From a virus: 64,000 nucleotides of DNA. Where the stretch lies: the IMG/VR virus record IMGVR_UViG_3300028840_003851. One strand, given 5' to 3'. Each line of letters opens with the position of its first letter. The first letter of the stretch is position 1. Below are positions 6,392 to 64,000 of this stretch, in pieces. The translations under genes and the position numbers were made by a program. A model generated the notes under the pieces. It was not told the origin of the DNA. It ran no database searches and was given only the letters and a program-made list of their open reading frames with translations.

Positions 6392-8977
6392 TCACACAAG
6401 ACCATACGCGCTGAGCGCTGATATTGTCTGAGGAGAGATGCCTCCTGCAGCACTCATGGCGCTCCCGAATGTAGGATACGGGTTACCTATAGAAGCTCTA
6501 GGAGCTACGGGACCACCTGGCCCCACAGACCATCCGGACGACAAGGGACCGCCTCCCGCCATCCGCATCCCAGAGCCCTTCATCGCCTTCATGATTGCTC
6601 TTTGCTCGTTAGCCTGCACCTTGAACGCGGTAGGGTAGTAATCCTCCTTCCCCATCACCTGCACCTTGGCCGTCTTCTCCTGCACCGCAGCCTGCTTCAC
6701 CTCCATCCCTAGCTCCCTGGCACGTTCCACCCTCCCCTGAAGGTCCTTGACCCGAAGAAGCTGACGACGTACCTCCTTCGCACTGTCTCGCGGAGCTCCT
6801 CCACTTCTCTGGTTGGCGAGAAGGGTGCCTACTGTGCTTCCTCCCAGCACTCCAACGAGAGGTGCCGCTTGCGCCAGGAGATGCTTTCCTCCAAGAGCAC
6901 GGGCACCGAGACCTGCACCAAAGCCTAAGCCAGCACCAGCCAAACCGTACAGCTGCTGCCGCCTCCTGCGCTCCTTCATCTGCTCTGCCGCGCCGGCAGC
7001 TCTCTCCAGAGCCTGACCCTGTTGATGGTGGGCCAAGATACCCTCCAGCAGGGCTGCAGTGTCGTCCCCCTTTTCCGCCGTCTTTGCTGTGCCCTCCGGG
7101 TCTACACCCAAAAGAGCCTTAACGACGTCAAGGCCAACCTCAAACATGCTGCTTAATAGCTTAGGGGGTATGTGCTCCTTATATGCCTGTAGTGCGTCAC
7201 TCTTGTTGTCATAGCCGACAAACACCTTGTACTCATCGAACGTACCGTCCGGCTTTACCTGCCTAGCCCAGAATGTCCTTGTAGAGCCTTTGCTCGGGCC
7301 TACGAACACATCAAGGCTATCCCCGTCTCCTCCATTAGCACCTTTGAGGTAGCCGTAGTCTGTCTTGTACACGCGCTTCCACGGTGTACCCCCCTCGTCT
7401 ACGCCCTCCATGACGAACCCCTTTGGGCGGTCTATGTGCACAGTGAGCCCTTGAAAGTATACCTTCTTCTTTGCTCTACCGTCCTGCGCAATCTTGTCTA
7501 GCTCTCCTACGAACCCACGCCACCTGTGGAGCGCTGTAGGAGACCAGACCTCTGCTCTTTTCTCTTTGCTATCCATTAGCCCTCTAAACTGCCCTATCAG
7601 CTTCTCTTTACGTTGGGCGTGTGCCGTCAGGTACTCATCTATGCCCCCGCCGGGCTTTGTTATCTTCAGCTTCTCCAGCAACCCTGCCTTTGGTCTTGTG
7701 GCAAGGTAGCTCTCTACTGTGATGTTTCGTTCCTTCTTGGGTAGGTGCGTATGGCTTCTGTACCTAATGCCTCGGCCTTCCACCTGCTTCAGCTTCTCTG
7801 TGTTCCAGTGTGGCTCTAGCACCTGGAGCAGCCTGGTGCCCTTGAGGTCTAGCCCCTCACCGCCTGCTGAGCTAAGCAGTAGAACCCTCTTATTCCCTTC
7901 ATTGTAGTCTCGAACCAGCTGGTCACGCTCCTTCTTGGGCATGGCCCCGGTGAACTCCCCGTAGGGGATGCCCGCCTGCTCAAGCCTCTCCTTGTACGGG
8001 CGTACCCCAGCATCCAGATAGTTTGAGTAGACCACCCCCTTAAACCTGGGGTTGCCCTCTAGCTTAGCCTTCATACGTTTGAACGCTGTATCAACCTTGG
8101 GCTCTTGGGGGGGCTCCTTTGGCGCATGCGCCCTCGTGGAGAGAGATATCTGCCGTACAGCAGAGGCAAACGCGTTAAGCTGCTTGGACTCCTGCTTGGA
8201 GGGGGGGAGACCCGCCTTTATCTTGAGCGCTACCCACGGAGGGGCTTGTCCTATTACCCCATCGTACAGCTTGCGCTGTTTGGCGGTCATGGGAACCTTC
8301 ACCACCTCCCTCCTCACGTCTGGGAAGTCGGCCTTCGTGCCAGGGTGGTAGTCTACCCACGTACGCATCACCTTCTTGAGCTCGTTGGCCTGTCTCGGGT
8401 TAAGCTCCTGCACCGTCCCAGGCTTGGCCCCACGGATACGCTGCCACAAGGAAGGATTGATGCGCGTCTCCTTCACGTACCTCTGCTCAAAGCTCTTCTG
8501 GTCTGGGGGGAGGACACGCTCCCCCGCGGCAATGTTTATCAGAGGAGCTATGTCACTTGGCCTATTATAAAATGGGCTCGCCGTGAGGAGCATACGCTTA
8601 TCTGAGAGGTTCCTCTTAAGCGCTTGATAGGTCTTAGAGTCCACCTCTCTTGCTCTGTGCGCCTCATCTACAATCAGCATGGGCGCATCTATCACCTCGC
8701 CTGCTCTTGCTACACGCTGCAGAGTAGTAATAGCCGCCTCGGGGGAGGTGCCTTCTATGTGCTTCTCTCGCTCCTTCTCGTAGTTCGCCTTCAAGGAGGC
8801 GGGCACGACCACAGTAGAAGGAAGACCTAACGCATCCTGTGCAGCAATAGAGCTGAGGGTCTTACCAGAGCCTAGCCCATGAGCCACTACCAGCCCTGGC
8901 TGCTCCTTCATACGCTCTACTACCTTGCGCTGATGGGGCTTTAGCTCATGGCGTATTGCCGCGACCTTCTCAGACAT
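6392..8977 (-). CDS. SNF2/SF2 helicase fused to an inorganic-pyrophosphatase-like (InPase) domain and a Gly-rich hydrophobic tail
   Basis: Walker A HGLGSGKT, DEAH, motif III LTASP, motifs V/VI SAGGEGLDL and QVEGRGIR (about 7600-8960). Then YGYLKG..GGDGDSLDVFVGP...DEYKVFVGY (about 7100-7470), carrying the PPase-type DxDxxD motif. Confidence 0.85.
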   Translation of the reverse strand: MSEKVAAIRHELKPHQRKVVERMKEQPGLVVAHGLGSGKTLSSIAAQDALGLPSTVVVPASLKANYEKEREKHIEGTSPEAAITTLQRVARAGEVIDAPMLIVDEAHRAREVDSKTYQALKRNLSDKRMLLTASPFYNRPSDIAPLINIAAGERVLPPDQKSFEQRYVKETRINPSLWQRIRGAKPGTVQELNPRQANELKKVMRTWVDYHPGTKADFPDVRREVVKVPMTAKQRKLYDGVIGQAPPWVALKIKAGLPPSKQESKQLNAFASAVRQISLSTRAHAPKEPPQEPKVDTAFKRMKAKLEGNPRFKGVVYSNYLDAGVRPYKERLEQAGIPYGEFTGAMPKKERDQLVRDYNEGNKRVLLLSSAGGEGLDLKGTRLLQVLEPHWNTEKLKQVEGRGIRYRSHTHLPKKERNITVESYLATRPKAGLLEKLKITKPGGGIDEYLTAHAQRKEKLIGQFRGLMDSKEKRAEVWSPTALHRWRGFVGELDKIAQDGRAKKKVYFQGLTVHIDRPKGFVMEGVDEGGTPWKRVYKTDYGYLKGANGGDGDSLDVFVGPSKGSTRTFWARQVKPDGTFDEYKVFVGYDNKSDALQAYKEHIPPKLLSSMFEVGLDVVKALLGVDPEGTAKTAEKGDDTAALLEGILAHHQQGQALERAAGAAEQMKERRRRQQLYGLAGAGLGFGAGLGARALGGKHLLAQAAPLVGVLGGSTVGTLLANQRSGGAPRDSAKEVRRQLLRVKDLQGRVERARELGMEVKQAAVQEKTAKVQVMGKEDYYPTAFKVQANEQRAIMKAMKGSGMRMAGGGPLSSGWSVGPGGPVAPRASIGNPYPTFGSAMSAAGGISPQTISALSAYGLV

Positions 8978-9032
8978 GCCTCATCGTACCACCATCCGTA
9001 TGCACCGAGCACCTCTGTCAGAGCGAGATGTG

Positions 9033-9059
9033 AAAGTTCGTCATGAAATAAAGCATAAG
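9033..9059 (+). promoter_or_regulatory. Putative phage promoter (AAA(A)...ATAAG motif) upstream of the structured-RNA island
   Basis: AAAG at 9033 and ATAAG at 9055, the same 21-24 nt spacing as the copies at 9852, 11275, 31199, 43909(-) and 45511(-). Confidence 0.4.
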
Positions 9060-9065
9060 AATAAC

Positions 9066-9257
9066 GAGATGGAAGATACATCTCAGGTGCCGACCAGAGT
9101 TAAAGCCCTCTGGTCAGGGAGAGCAGTCTCCCGCCATCGGAGTGGCGCCCGGTGGTTAGTGTTTTTTACCGAGGTACTCTCGGTAGGCTGGATGCTGGGC
9201 CGGTGACCAACAGCATCCGCAAAAGCCTGAGCACGGAGCTTCCCGGAGCTCTGCGCT
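9066..9257 (+). ncRNA. Candidate structured ncRNA or leader: a chain of seven hairpins
   Basis: GAGATG/CATCTC, GACCAGAG/CTCTGGTC, GGGAGA/TCTCCC, GGTGCC/GGCGCC (or GCCA/TGGC), TACCGAG/CTCGGTA, GGATGCTG/CAGCATCC, and AGCACGGAGCT/AGCTCTGCGCT. No convincing CDS. Confidence 0.45.
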
Positions 9258-9269
9258 GCTTATCTTAAG

Positions 9270-9554
9270 AGAGGCTGCGGTGTACCGCCGCGGATTAACC
9301 TCTCGCATGGGCTCCTACCAGTCCCTTAAAGGTAGGGTACGGCTCATGGCAGGTCTCCTCTTCACAATGAGGCCACATGCAAAGGGACACGCAACGACTC
9401 TGACAGCACCGCCACGTTGGGCCTTCGGCCTCTCGCGGTGCAGTCAGATTCGCCGCGCTACACCCTCCGCTAATGGTGTCTCTCGGGGCGTCAGGAGGAA
9501 GTGTAGGGCTGTGGGTTATAGGCCCCAGCGGGTTCGAGTCCCGAAACAGCCTCT
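9270..9554 (+). ncRNA. Candidate novel large structured ncRNA with a tRNA-like T-arm and a pseudoknot
   Basis: Terminal stem AGAGGCTG(9270-77)/CAGCCTCT(9547-54); T-arm CGGG-TTCGAGT-CCCG (9529-43); at least seven internal helices; loop GTCCCTT(9321-27) complementary to loop AAGGGAC(9382-88). Confidence 0.6.
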
Positions 9555-9779
9555 ATGTATAAGACAAAAGGCATGACTCAGTCCGAGCTCTCCGAGCTCG
9601 GACTGATTGCTGGGTACCACATAGTACCCAGCAACCCCCCACGCCTCCCGCGTGGGGAGCTAACACCGGCCTGCGAGTGTGAGTCGGACCACTGGGTCCG
9701 ACTATTCGGCCCATGGTACGTCTGCCCCCTCTGCGGGGCAGCTCCTGCTGAAGGGCACGAGCCACTCGTATGCAGGTAA
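9555..9779 (+). CDS. Small Zn-ribbon protein (74 aa)
   Basis: CECxxxH and CPLCG motifs; ATG directly follows the ncRNA terminal stem. Confidence 0.6.
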   Translation: MYKTKGMTQSELSELGLIAGYHIVPSNPPRLPRGELTPACECESDHWVRLFGPWYVCPLCGAAPAEGHEPLVCR

Positions 9780-9810
9780 GGGTAATGGGAGCTCCCCTAT
9801 GAGAGCGCCC

Positions 9811-9855
9811 CGTCCAAGCTGAGACGTTAAACCAGCTTTTCTTAGCTCCTTAAAA
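9811..9855 (+). repeat. Conserved intergenic module, copy a (truncated)
   Basis: CGTC-CAAGCTGA-GACG hairpin, then TTAAAC, then TTTTCTTAGCTCC. Confidence 0.7.
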
Positions 9856-9892
9856 GTACGCTCAAGAATAGGTAATAAGAATAGTGAAGGAG
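9852..9892 (+). promoter_or_regulatory. Putative phage promoter plus RBS
   Basis: AAAA(9852)...ATAAG(9875); AAGGAG at 9887-9892. Confidence 0.5.
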
Positions 9893-9940
9893 ACCACAGA
9901 CACGTGCAAAGGTTGTGCGCTGCTCTAGTGGTTCAAGAAA

Positions 9941-11113
9941 ATGTCGAACATCACTTCCAACATCACCACCATCACCACCATCAGCACAACCGCAACCATA
10001 ATCAACACCCCGGTGGTAGTCGACCGCCGGGAGGGGGAGGAGGACCGAAGGGTCCTCGAGGTGGTTGGGGACGTAAGGGATGAGGAGGAGATTGAAAATC
10101 TCCTCCTCATTGTGGACGCGTTGATGGAGGGGAGGGAGGAGGTGGTTCCTGCCCTCCTCCCGGAGGGGTGGGAGTACAACGACGGGTACTTCCCACCCCG
10201 TATCGACACCACGTGGGAATCCCCGACCTCCCCGCTCCCCCCTATGGGAGCGGTGAAGGATTACCTGAACGAAATCCGGGTATCCATCCAAAACTATCCC
10301 CCGAGTGATGAGGTTGCCCGGGCCGTAATGGCTTGGGCCGAGACCCTCCCAGAGGGTAGGGGGAGGCGACTGGTGGGGGGAGCCCAAGCGGGCTCCGGGC
10401 ACATAGCCCTACTCGATGGATGGAACGCCTACCAGCGAGAAGGGTGTGACTGGGTGAGCGTAGAGTTCGAGTTCCCTCCCGTCGAGGAGGTAATAGGGGC
10501 TCTGCGCGCCCTGCGTCCCGGGAGGTACGATAGGGAGGAGGTTGCCGTTCTCGGCAATCGGTTCTCCAGGCTACCCTGGGGATCGATTGAGGGGATGCCC
10601 GGATGGTTCATCCAGGACAGGGCAAAAGGGGACTGGTCGTCCCCTTACAGGGAGCGGACATTGTGCCTCCACCGAGTACCGGTAGTGACCATGGAGTACT
10701 GCACCTCCCTGATGCCCTTCAGGACCTTGGAGCTCCAGGTGTTCTCCGTGGAGGAGGGTAAGGCCCTCCGCCAGAGGGAGAAGGAGGAGAACCGCGCCAG
10801 TGCCCGAGAGTACGCAGACTCTAGGGCCCAGGCTAGGGACCTTCTCCTAGCAGGGGCGGAGCTGCAGTACTTTCCCGGGCAGATGGGAGGGGTGCTGTAC
10901 TTTGAGGGCCTGCAAAGGTATGTCTCCGCTCACGGCGCCCTGCGGGGGCTCCTCCCGGATGTCGAGGTGGCAGAGCTGCTGTATAAGGCGGCGCAGGAGG
11001 ACGCACCTCGCTGGATACGACTCCCACGGAAGCCCACTATACCAAAGTGGGTGGGGAAGAAGGCGGGGAGGTCCGCCGAAGCAGACATAGAGGAGGGGCT
11101 GGCTGAGCTCTAA
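9941..11113 (+). CDS. Hypothetical protein (390 aa) with a Thr/Ile low-complexity N-terminus
   Basis: Long ORF with natural composition; no family recognised. Confidence 0.7.
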   Translation: MSNITSNITTITTISTTATIINTPVVVDRREGEEDRRVLEVVGDVRDEEEIENLLLIVDALMEGREEVVPALLPEGWEYNDGYFPPRIDTTWESPTSPLPPMGAVKDYLNEIRVSIQNYPPSDEVARAVMAWAETLPEGRGRRLVGGAQAGSGHIALLDGWNAYQREGCDWVSVEFEFPPVEEVIGALRALRPGRYDREEVAVLGNRFSRLPWGSIEGMPGWFIQDRAKGDWSSPYRERTLCLHRVPVVTMEYCTSLMPFRTLELQVFSVEEGKALRQREKEENRASAREYADSRAQARDLLLAGAELQYFPGQMGGVLYFEGLQRYVSAHGALRGLLPDVEVAELLYKAAQEDAPRWIRLPRKPTIPKWVGKKAGRSAEADIEEGLAEL

Positions 11114-11196
11114 AGGCCAGCCCCTTCCCTCCCCAGTGGTCGTGGCAAAGCCACTGGGGAGACACCGATGTGTCTGGCAAGCACATGGTGTAACCT

Positions 11197-11277
11197 CGTC
11201 CTCAGCTGAAGGACGTTAAGCAGAGCGCACAAGCTCTTCGGCACGGGACCATTAATGGTCCTTTTTAGTACCGTAAA
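11197..11277 (+). repeat. Conserved intergenic module, copy b (three hairpins ending in an intrinsic terminator)
   Basis: CGTCC/GGACG, TTAAGC, GAGC-GCACAA-GCTC, GGACC-ATTAAT-GGTCC-TTTTTAG-TACCGTAAA. Confidence 0.8.
11246..11266 (+). terminator. Intrinsic terminator
   Basis: GGACC/GGTCC stem followed by T5. Confidence 0.65.
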
Positions 11278-11301
11278 ATAATACGTAAAATCGAGCATAA
11301 G
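11275..11301 (+). promoter_or_regulatory. Putative phage promoter, possibly giving a leaderless mRNA
   Basis: AAAA(11275)...ATAAG(11297); ATG 11311 follows 9 nt later with no SD. Confidence 0.45.
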
Positions 11302-11310
11302 AGTAATGGT

Positions 11311-11604
11311 ATGAAATACAACCGCGACTGCAGCGTGTGCCTCAGTGAGAGGCGCAACCCATTCAGTCATGAATGGGACTGCGTCGCGGGTCCAGAGTGC
11401 CCGGAGTGCCATAAGTGCTCCGGGGTAATATTCGACACACAGTACAAGTCGGTAGACGGAAAATACTACTGGCGGGAGTACTATGTCGAGCCCCATGGCC
11501 GCATGGGGAACAGAAGCTACAACGACGACTACCGAGTCGGGTACTTCTGCTCATGCGGCTGGGAGTACTCCAGACCCCGGCGTAGGAAGAAGGATGATGA
11601 GTAA
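11311..11604 (+). CDS. Cys-rich Zn-binding protein (97 aa)
   Basis: CSVC, CPECHKC and CSCG motifs; basic C-terminus. Confidence 0.7.
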   Translation: MKYNRDCSVCLSERRNPFSHEWDCVAGPECPECHKCSGVIFDTQYKSVDGKYYWREYYVEPHGRMGNRSYNDDYRVGYFCSCGWEYSRPRRRKKDDE

Positions 11605-13636: not shown

Positions 13637-13718
13637 TGGACAGTGATGGAATCGAACCACGCGCCTCACAGCAGCTGGGTTACAGCCAGCCCAGTCTCCA
13701 AGACTGTATGCACCGTCC
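13637..13718 (-). tRNA. tRNA-Tyr(GTA) with an 8-bp acceptor, 4-bp T stem and long D stem
   Basis: GGACGGTG/CACTGTCC-A73; CAGTC-TTGGA-GACTG; GCTGG-CTGTAAC-CCAGC; long V arm GCT-GTGA-GGC; GTGG-TTCGATT-CCAT. Confidence 0.85.
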
Positions 13719-55178: not shown

Positions 55179-55544
55179 ATGGAAGAGCTCGACACCACCA
55201 CCGACACCACCACCGACACCGACACCATCACCGACACCATCACCACCGACACCACGGCAGCGTTTGAGGGAGTCAAAATGTCAAAGGCGGAACTAAAAGA
55301 CGCGGTGTACGAAGGAGCGTACACTGCCGCCCGGGATGTAACCCGGGAAAGGTTAGAGGACCCCTCCTTCCTAGAGGAGTATGGGTTCGCGAAGAGCGAC
55401 ATAGGGGCGGGAATCAAGATTGTCGCGACTACAGCCGCTATCGCGGCTGTAACAGTTGCGGCCGTCCACGTGGGGCGTAAGCTCCTGTCGTCGGGGGACA
55501 GTACCCCCGTCCCAGAAGCTCCGGACCCAGATGTGAGCTTCTAG
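55179..55544 (+). CDS. Protein with a D/T tandem-repeat N-terminus and a C-terminal TM
   Basis: SD AAGGAG before ATG 55179; TM ATTAAIAAVTVAAVHVG. Confidence 0.7.
   Translation: MEELDTTTDTTTDTDTITDTITTDTTAAFEGVKMSKAELKDAVYEGAYTAARDVTRERLEDPSFLEEYGFAKSDIGAGIKIVATTAAIAAVTVAAVHVGRKLLSSGDSTPVPEAPDPDVSF
55191..55256 (+). repeat. Coding tandem repeat of GACACC(ACC/ATC)n
   Basis: Encodes DTTTDTTTDTDTITDTITTDTT. Confidence 0.85.
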
Positions 55545-55596
55545 CGCATAGCGCTCTGTGACAGAGATGTCATAGAGCGCTTCGCTCTTTTCTCTT
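55543..55596 (+). promoter_or_regulatory. Mutually exclusive hairpins (attenuator-like) ending in a U-rich tract
   Basis: AGCGC/GCGCT (55543-55); 14-bp AGCGCTCTGTGACA-GAGA-TGTCATAGAGCGCT (55550-81); AGAGCG/CGCTCT + TTTCTCTT (55574-96). Confidence 0.5.
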
Positions 55597-55634
55597 GCAT
55601 CAAAAAGGGGGGAGACAGATATTAGAGGTGTACA

Positions 55635-55874
55635 ATGGATACAATAAGACCATACGAGAACGCCTCTGTAGCGATGGAGTCCTTTCGGGCTGCCATGTGC
55701 TTGCGGGGTCTTTCTCGAGAAGCAGAGGCGCTTAGAGGCGCGGAGGTTATGAGCACCGAGTCAGCGCACTCGGCGCTTGCAGCCATCAACTCTGTTAACG
55801 TGGAAGACGCGACCGTAAAGGCAGCGCAAGAGGACGCAAGGCGAGTGCTCACAGCAGTGCTCGCATACCAGTAG
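55635..55874 (+). CDS. Helical hypothetical protein (79 aa)
   Basis: SD GAGGT. Confidence 0.6.
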   Translation: MDTIRPYENASVAMESFRAAMCLRGLSREAEALRGAEVMSTESAHSALAAINSVNVEDATVKAAQEDARRVLTAVLAYQ

Positions 55875-63422: not shown

Positions 63423-64000
63423 ACTATCTCCGCCACAAACAGCTTCCTAACCCTGCACTCAAACCAGAAGTGGTTAGCTCCAAGGCTCGCAAGCATGTGT
63501 GTAGGTAGCTTCTGAACTCTCTTGAACTTCTTCCAGAACAGCTCATCAGAGAAAGACCCGTTTGGCCCTATGTGCTCACCAAGCGGCTTGCCGTTGATAC
63601 GCGCTATGCCGATTGTGACGCTCATGATGGAGTACTTATCTAGAAGGTAACGGTCGCTCACCGTTACAGACTCAGACTCCTCCATGATGAGGCGCTTAAG
63701 CGCTAGGTCCTCCTCACCCGTCATAGACTGGTAGGTGACCTCGAACCCGCTAACAATCGGGACCTTCTGCTCTATCCTGTTGTGCAGAATTAGGTCCTCT
63801 ACATTGAGCGGCTTTAGCCTCTTCTCTATCGCCTCCTTCTGCTTGTCGTTGTTCAGGATGTCCTTCATCATCAGCTGACGGAGCTTGTCGAAATCAAGCT
63901 CGTCAACGTTAAGCTCGGATGCCTCCTTGCTAGTGGTCTTGAAGGACGTGTCCCCCGGAAGGTTTCCTATCCTGGCCGATGCGGCAGCTGGGCCGTCCGC
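63410..64000 (-). CDS. Tail assembly chaperone (lambda G-like), 5' end beyond the window
   Basis: Frame is open back to 64000; ends ...EIVGNG* on G-GGA-AAT; FEVTYQSMTGEED...SVTIGIARING resembles myophage chaperones. Confidence 0.7.
   Translation of the reverse strand, partial: ADGPAAASARIGNLPGDTSFKTTSKEASELNVDELDFDKLRQLMMKDILNNDKQKEAIEKRLKPLNVEDLILHNRIEQKVPIVSGFEVTYQSMTGEEDLALKRLIMEESESVTVSDRYLLDKYSIMSVTIGIARINGKPLGEHIGPNGSFSDELFWKKFKRVQKLPTHMLASLGANHFWFECRVRKLFVAEIVGNG
63416..63422 (-). other. Programmed -1 ribosomal frameshift slippery heptamer GGGAAAT
   Basis: X-XXY-YYZ in the correct register (GTG GGA AAT GGC TGA), two codons before the stop; the -1 frame is open for about 145 codons. 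Confidence 0.75.

Follow-up and report, generated by a model that had tools for sequence, protein, structure and literature searches.

Does the stretch at positions 9270-9554 of this phage DNA specify one closed RNA on a tRNA-like frame, or is it part of something more ordinary? The original prediction had drawn it as a closed, multi-helix RNA of 285 nt whose two ends pair over 8 bp, with a tRNA-type T arm near the 3′ end and a kissing-loop pseudoknot inside. It had offered two readings of this structure, a new class of tRNA mimic or a large cis-regulatory leader. The features on which the answer turns are collected in Table 1.

Genome setting

The source is an uncultured large phage of ~179 kb, of which 64 kb (the window) was analysed. 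The relative closest to it is a 186.7-kb IMG/VR phage, with 74% identity in the helicase, and none of the cultured phages is close to it. The stretch sits where a leftward helicase operon and a rightward island (~9-13 kb) diverge. The genes nearest to it include one for an SNF2 helicase fused to a pyrophosphatase-like domain (SNF2-InPase; 6392-8977, minus strand), and large structural-type proteins are also encoded among them. The rightward island consists of orphan small accessory genes and is followed by three tRNA genes at 13.1-13.4 kb (ARAGORN), 3.6 kb from 9270-9554. The whole island is missing from the closest relative, and its 74-aa and 390-aa neighbour proteins have no or almost no relatives, the 390-aa protein (9941-11113) having only five distant ones among 1.8 billion representative proteins. 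This protein and a 97-aa protein of the island (11311-11604) have in common a short W-E-Y-N-D-G-Y-F-like motif, which is visible in the DNA as repeats at 10166-10192 and 11471-11568. A Pfam search identified a sigma-70-like protein (sigma-70 region 3) and RNase HII in the window, while no Ro60, RtcB, integrase or reverse-transcriptase domain was found among the 48 ORFs scanned (E ≤ 1e-5).

Table 1. Features of the junction region, with coordinates on the window
Feature	Coordinates	Strand	Remarks
Non-coding hairpin-dense region	8978-9940		Junction at which the leftward SNF2-InPase gene and the rightward accessory island diverge; 9270-9554 is its middle third
Promoter-like site	9030-9071	+	GTGAAA, 17-18 nt, CATAAGA, N8, ATG; member of a local class
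Intrinsic-terminator-like hairpin with a T6 run after it	9133-9167	+	Upstream of 9270-9554
Stable local hairpin	9269-9304	+	-19.4 kcal/mol, z -4.15; probability 0.65-1.0 with flanks
Stretch as first delimited	9270-9554	+	285 nt; all six frames non-coding by codon score
Hairpin with an 11-nt loop containing GTCCCTT	9306-9348	+	-17.4 kcal/mol, z -2.6; in every fold
Long interrupted hairpin, the best-supported single structure	9390-9457	+	-36.7 kcal/mol, z -5.4; 0 shuffles fold as well
G-U-rich hairpin (strand-specific if real)	9458-9506	+	-18.1 kcal/mol, z -2.2; lost in the 963-nt fold
tRNA-like look-alike module	9506-9552	+	7-bp acceptor-like stem, small hairpin, T-arm-like hairpin at 9529-9543
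Second ATAAGA-N8-ATG site	9558-9575	+	Starts 4 nt past the end of 9270-9554

Coding potential of the junction region

The longest low-coding run of the window, 8821-9990, contains the stretch. With a codon model trained on this phage's own long genes, the six frames of 9270-9554 score between -0.29 and -0.43, against +0.15 to +0.43 for genes, and the ORFs at 8976-9206, 9280-9576 and 9573-9779 all score negative. We take 8978-9940 as non-coding. The one reading that would place a gene here is a small basic protein encoded by a 98-codon ORF at 9280-9576 that opens with GTG 5 nt past a GAGG. This frame is open and the GAGG, at 9271-9274, resembles a Shine-Dalgarno sequence, but the ORF scores -0.30 when the other five frames score no worse, and its GC content is flat across codon positions (0.58/0.62/0.57, compared with 0.57/0.45/0.60 in genes). 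Its product is Arg-rich and of low complexity, as expected from translated GC-rich non-coding DNA. The protein-gene reading was rejected on these codon statistics and is extremely improbable. Further on, the 68-codon ORF at 9573-9779, whose product would carry CxC...CPxC motifs, is made up of perfect hairpins set back to back, their stems 7-13 bp long, and has a non-coding codon score of -0.23; it may be a gene, an RNA or a series of terminators.

Long-range pairings

All the complementary words listed for the proposed structure lie where they had been placed, those of the end stem being AGAGGCTG at 9270 and CAGCCTCT at 9547, and those of the two loops GTCCCTT at 9321 and AAGGGAC at 9382. The words of the 8-bp end-to-end stem are therefore present, but they occur at a frequency expected by chance, and the stem itself is gone once flanking sequence is included. 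Perfect 8-mer complements separated by 200-400 nt number 3 in 8978-9940 against 2.5 expected, and at least one such pair was found in 83% of shuffles. The pairing probability of the closing stem is 0.86 when exactly 9270-9554 is folded, but flanks of 10 nt lower it to 0.31 and flanks of at least 40 nt to 0.00, because GAGAGG at 9269-74 pairs with CCUCUC at 9299-304 in the stronger hairpin 9269-9304. The 3′ strand of this stem has two alternative 5′ partners, at 9270-77 and at 9506-12.

The kissing loop between 9321-27 and 9382-88 presents a similar picture: the complement is exact, but two 7-mer complements at spans of 30-150 nt were observed inside the element, one of them being the proposed kissing loop, when 1.84 were expected. 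The words of the CGCGG/CCGCG helix are likewise in place, but its pairing probability is ~0. In GC-rich non-coding DNA this long, chance alone is expected to supply 8-bp end stems and 7-nt loop complements. The picture of a closed multi-helix RNA of 285 nt found no support, since its closure, kissing loop and long-range helix are each at chance level or thermodynamically disfavoured.

Local hairpins

As a whole, 9270-9554 folds at -127.8 kcal/mol (z -3.55 versus dinucleotide shuffles), and after regression on GC content its stability lies only ~1.8 sd above that of other 285-nt windows of this DNA. Neighbouring 9500-10360 and 11020-11600 are more extreme in GC-corrected folding stability. The entire region 8978-9940 (963 nt) has a minimum free energy of -427 kcal/mol, equal on both strands; the plus and minus strands fold equally well and with equal G-U counts, so that thermodynamics indicates no strand. 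The parts of the stretch that rise above chance are three independent local hairpins, 9269-9304, 9306-9348 and 9390-9457, the last of which keeps its core (9399-9448) in the 963-nt fold. The helices inside 9270-9554 are imperfect, include G-U pairs and are followed by no U tracts. Perfect hairpins of 8-13 bp cluster on either side of it, with six in 9092-9703 and none within the stretch.

The T-arm look-alike and the 3′ module

The feature that gave the stretch its tRNA-like appearance, the hairpin CGGG-TTCGAGT-CCCG at 9529-9543, does fit the consensus of the tRNA T loop; by the T-arm description of the tRNA family (RF00005), it has both the G53-C61 closing pair and the TTCRANY loop. It is not thermodynamically favoured, however, reaching a probability of 0.06 in the isolated element, and the module 9506-9552 folded alone (z -1.68) pairs otherwise than in the T-arm fold. 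Consensus T-arm hairpins are expected at 0.38 per 64 kb of shuffled sequence, so that one anywhere in the window is unremarkable, and the expectation of ~0.006 for one inside this 1-kb non-coding region, which is a post hoc figure, is mildly suggestive. Between the T arm and the 3′ strand of the end stem stand three A residues; if the T arm is taken instead with the local 7-bp acceptor-like stem 9506-12/9546-52, the gap is 2 nt. A bulge of 2-3 nt breaks the stack in this module.

When the module was searched against Rfam, the scores were below threshold, with mascRNA at 14.9 bits (cut-off 42.5, E = 2.2) and tRNA-Sec at 13.7 bits (cut-off 47). Like mascRNA (RF01684, the 3′ end of MALAT1), the module combines an acceptor-like stem with a T arm, has no D arm and forms the 3′ end of a longer structured stretch; unlike it, the module scores sub-threshold and has a different predicted fold when taken alone. 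Because mascRNA is a vertebrate family, this likeness is an analogy only. The look-alike would be coincidental, or else a relic derived from a tRNA or a small processing tag of tRNA-like form.

Comparison with known RNA families

The prediction that no known family would match was borne out for 9270-9554 by both Rfam and ARAGORN. With Rfam 15 the stretch had no match at the gathering score in a scan of the window, and searches of 9000-9800 and 9260-9565 at E ≤ 10 gave only insignificant matches, none of them to tmRNA. ARAGORN made no call at the stretch with default settings, with introns allowed or with the tmRNA threshold lowered (80%), and two loosened tRNA runs produced one poor sub-threshold call each, including a 'tRNA-Arg with a 276-nt intron' at 9190-9553. 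A tRNA with a giant insert was rejected, as 0 of 396 in silico excisions, each a combination of junctions, yielded a tRNA.

The tmRNA idea was tested in earnest because, of 30 related large-phage records tested, 18 have a canonical tmRNA with the tag ANDN...AA (loci among L040-L042 and L132-L146), whereas the 64-kb window has none. The stretch resembles tmRNA (SsrA; RF00023) in its size range, its pairable ends and the T arm near its 3′ end, as well as in the large helix-rich insert between tRNA-like ends, with a possible pseudoknot, and its phage relatives carry real tmRNAs. It differs in the hallmarks that the original prediction had already reported missing, and they are indeed absent: there is no G3-U70 pair (acceptor position 3 is G-C), no CCA and no plausible tag ORF, and AAA stands between the T stem and the 3′ strand. 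As ARAGORN called no tmRNA, it gave no tag; by eye, the frame of the 98-codon ORF crosses the element without a stop, and translation in the remaining two yields ...TLR-stop or a peptide of 4 codons. The T arm is almost the same as that of this phage family's tmRNAs, and beyond its 15-16 nt neither local alignment nor an nhmmer profile of 18 family tmRNAs detected similarity to them. The position of the stretch is also not syntenic with the tmRNA of the closest relative. With no defining feature present, no match to the family profile and no synteny, tmRNA was rejected.

Several other identities were tried and set aside. An attachment site containing the 3′ half of a host tRNA was rejected since a 21-mer that covers the T loop through to the 3′ strand had a single match in species-representative genomes, at a non-tRNA site; as this 21-mer matches no tRNA gene, it is not a copied host tRNA 3′ half of the kind found in attachment sites. 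A bacterial Y RNA (a YrlA-type tRNA mimic) was discarded for want of an Rfam match and of any TROVE or RtcB domain in the nearest ORFs or the 48 scanned ones, and GOLLD and ROOL for want of an Rfam match at the gathering score in the window or at E ≤ 10 in 9000-9800. A MITE was also rejected: an 8-bp terminal inverted repeat is present, but no second copy was found in the window or in 55 related phage records.

Homologue searches

No homologue of the element was found by blastn against 50,697 phage records or by an exact 22-mer against viral contigs. A pattern for the T module gave 13 matches in viral contigs, all of them T-arm-bearing but unrelated (two within called tRNAs, several inside tRNA clusters), and a pattern for the kissing loop gave 5 chance matches in metagenome contigs. 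These five were all rejected by R1, a single-sequence covariance model of the element. Searches of 5 and then 50 related phage records (26 of the 50 at least 90% complete) with blastn and R1, a model that may miss diverged homologues, returned nothing. The proposal of a new tRNA-mimic class thus found no homologue in any of the phage, viral-contig, genome-contig and metagenome collections searched. Absence from the 55 related phage records is consistent, as judged from sequence, with a fast-evolving regulatory spacer in an orphan island.

Promoter-like sites and a structured leader or spacer

The ATG that was said to follow the element directly is there, at 9555. On the plus strand, the pattern ATAAGA-N8-ATG is present at 9055, 9559 and 11297, all within 9055-11313; with one more match on the minus strand, at 63623-63639, the total is 4 against 1.06 expected. 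A related ATAAGA site lies at 9875. The local class of promoter-like sites spans 9030-9071, 9558-9575, 9850-9880 and 11273-11313. Its members carry [CA]ATAAGA, with an ATG exactly 8 nt on in three of the four, and three of the sites have GT[GA]AAA or TTAAAA ~17 nt upstream of ATAAGA. The spacing of the ATG suggests that transcripts from such putative promoters would be leaderless or have very short leaders. No promoter-like site of this class lies in front of 9270-9554.

Between the first promoter-like site and the terminator-like site, the ~100 nt of 9067-9167 hold tight hairpins at 9092-9115 and 9117-9132 and could specify a small RNA or act as an attenuator. The overlapping ORFs of 45 and 76 codons in this segment have non-coding codon scores.

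Our preferred reading, held tentatively and at a little short of an even chance, is that 9270-9554 forms the middle part of a control or leader region, ~0.96 kb long, non-coding and dense in hairpins, and is not one closed RNA. The stretch is non-coding, it bears stable local hairpins, its long-range pairings are at chance level, and it has no detectable family or homologue. We infer from this arrangement the direction of transcription and a regulatory role, which may work as follows. Rightward transcripts would start at the promoter-like site near 9055, and most of them would stop at the hairpin and T-run of 9133-9167. RNA that reads through would carry the chain of hairpins as a structured leader or spacer, and these hairpins could control termination, processing or stability ahead of the next promoter-like site at 9559. 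The cis-regulatory leader that the original prediction had named as its second option comes close to this account, the stretch being both non-coding and locally structured.

Among known systems, the intergenic terminators and structured leaders of phages share with the stretch a chain of stable local hairpins between promoter-like sites, and flanking perfect palindromes of the kind that lie between many genes of this phage. The hairpins of 9270-9554 differ from them in being imperfect, in lacking U tracts and in being unusually numerous for a plain terminator. Against the leader reading stand these imperfect G-U helices, which, unlike the perfect hairpins around them, resemble a folded RNA more than terminators in series, together with the consensus T-arm hairpin in the region and the tmRNAs and small T-arm RNAs carried by relatives. 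If the leader reading is true, the locus is a further example of a fast-evolving structured intergenic region, here in an orphan island, and of local interest only.

Alternative explanations

The same observations bear on a discrete, stable phage RNA, either ~285 nt long or shorter and ending in the 9506-9552 module, that would act as a tRNA-like decoy or processing signal, its T arm and acceptor-like stem engaging RNase P or Z, the CCA-adding enzyme or anticodon nucleases. We consider this unlikely. The consensus T-arm hairpin in non-coding DNA, the imperfect, RNA-like helices with a z of -3.55 for the whole, and the choice of two 5′ partners (9270-77 and 9506-12) for one 3′ strand all argue for such an RNA, as do the tRNA genes 3.6 kb away and relatives that carry tmRNAs and unclassified small T-arm RNAs. 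Yet neither the closure nor the kissing loop exceeds chance, the thermodynamic ensemble disfavours both the T arm and the closing stem, three A residues break the stack of acceptor and T stem, and the T loop has no D-loop GG partner. Moreover, the strands show no asymmetry, no promoter-like site lies in front, and the lack of homologues means that there is no covariation. A precedent of a kind is provided by the species 1 and 2 RNAs of phage T4 (rnaC, rnaD), small stable RNAs that lie beside phage tRNA genes, are expressed and processed, and have no known role. The stretch resembles them in being phage-encoded, non-coding and structured, in lying a few kb from tRNA genes and in having tRNA-like features; expression and processing, however, are shown for T4 only, and no sequence relationship was detected. 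The bolder form of this idea, in which the stretch would be the founding member of a phage-specific class built on a tRNA-like frame of end stem, T arm and pseudoknot insert, standing in for tmRNA or serving as an anti-defence decoy, is quite improbable. If a discrete tRNA-like RNA is made, a T-arm RNA in place of tmRNA would point to unexplored tampering by the phage with translation or with tRNA-directed defence.

Two further readings have a slim chance each. The stretch could be the decayed remnant of a tRNA or tmRNA gene that keeps a T arm and fragments of an acceptor stem, most related phages carrying a tmRNA and tRNA arrays; the canonical tmRNAs of 18 of 30 relatives beside their absence from the window, the near-identity of the T arm to that of the family tmRNAs, and the poor tRNA-Arg call at 9190-9553 are in keeping with such an origin. 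Against it, neither alignment nor profile detected residual tmRNA similarity outside the 15-16-nt T arm, none of the 396 excisions gave a tRNA, the locus and the tmRNA of the closest relative are not in syntenic positions, and hairpins with z of -4 to -5 are not expected from decay. The other reading places the function at the DNA level or in a replication-origin primer, with a structured transcript forming an R-loop beside the helicase gene, and we rate it as quite improbable. R-loops of structured transcripts are used at origins, as by ColE1 RNA II and at oriF and oriG of T4. The equal folding of both strands, the position at a divergent junction beside an SNF2 helicase gene, the RNase HII gene in the window and the perfect palindromes that flank the stretch would suit this, but the stretch has no iterons, direct repeats or AT-rich unwinding element (GC 0.61), GC skew tracks gene orientation only, and no evidence links the SNF2 protein to the initiation of replication.

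Other structured loci in the window and in related phages

A second patch of very stable predicted folding, ~3 sd in GC-corrected terms, lies at 55291-55670 (plus strand) by another short plus-strand gene pair; according to R1 it holds no copy of 9270-9554. On the minus strand at 13646-13660, a fourth T-arm-like hairpin, GTGG-TTCGATT-CCAT, lies outside the three tRNAs called by ARAGORN.

In a relative without a normal tmRNA, a 128-nt RNA candidate (L126; G024:141453-141580, minus strand) has an acceptor stem, GGGTGTG/CGCATCC, that contains G3-U70, as well as a T arm, while its interior is only short. The tmRNA model gives this candidate 18 bits and ARAGORN does not call it; it may be a miniature tmRNA-like RNA. 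Another phage record has a 54-nt tRNA-like minihelix (L129; G032:169029-169082, plus strand) whose acceptor stem and T arm are accompanied by an encoded ACCA end; it adjoins a tRNA cluster and is likewise not called by ARAGORN. In the closest relative, a T-arm-like hairpin, TGGG-TTCGACT-CCCA, is followed by a GGCCC-TTCG-GGGCC hairpin at G001:130800-130940 (minus strand; within L036). The two lie in a ~90-nt unit that is bracketed by two copies of TTCGGGGATAA[A/C]AGTAGTGG and may be a small unannotated RNA gene.
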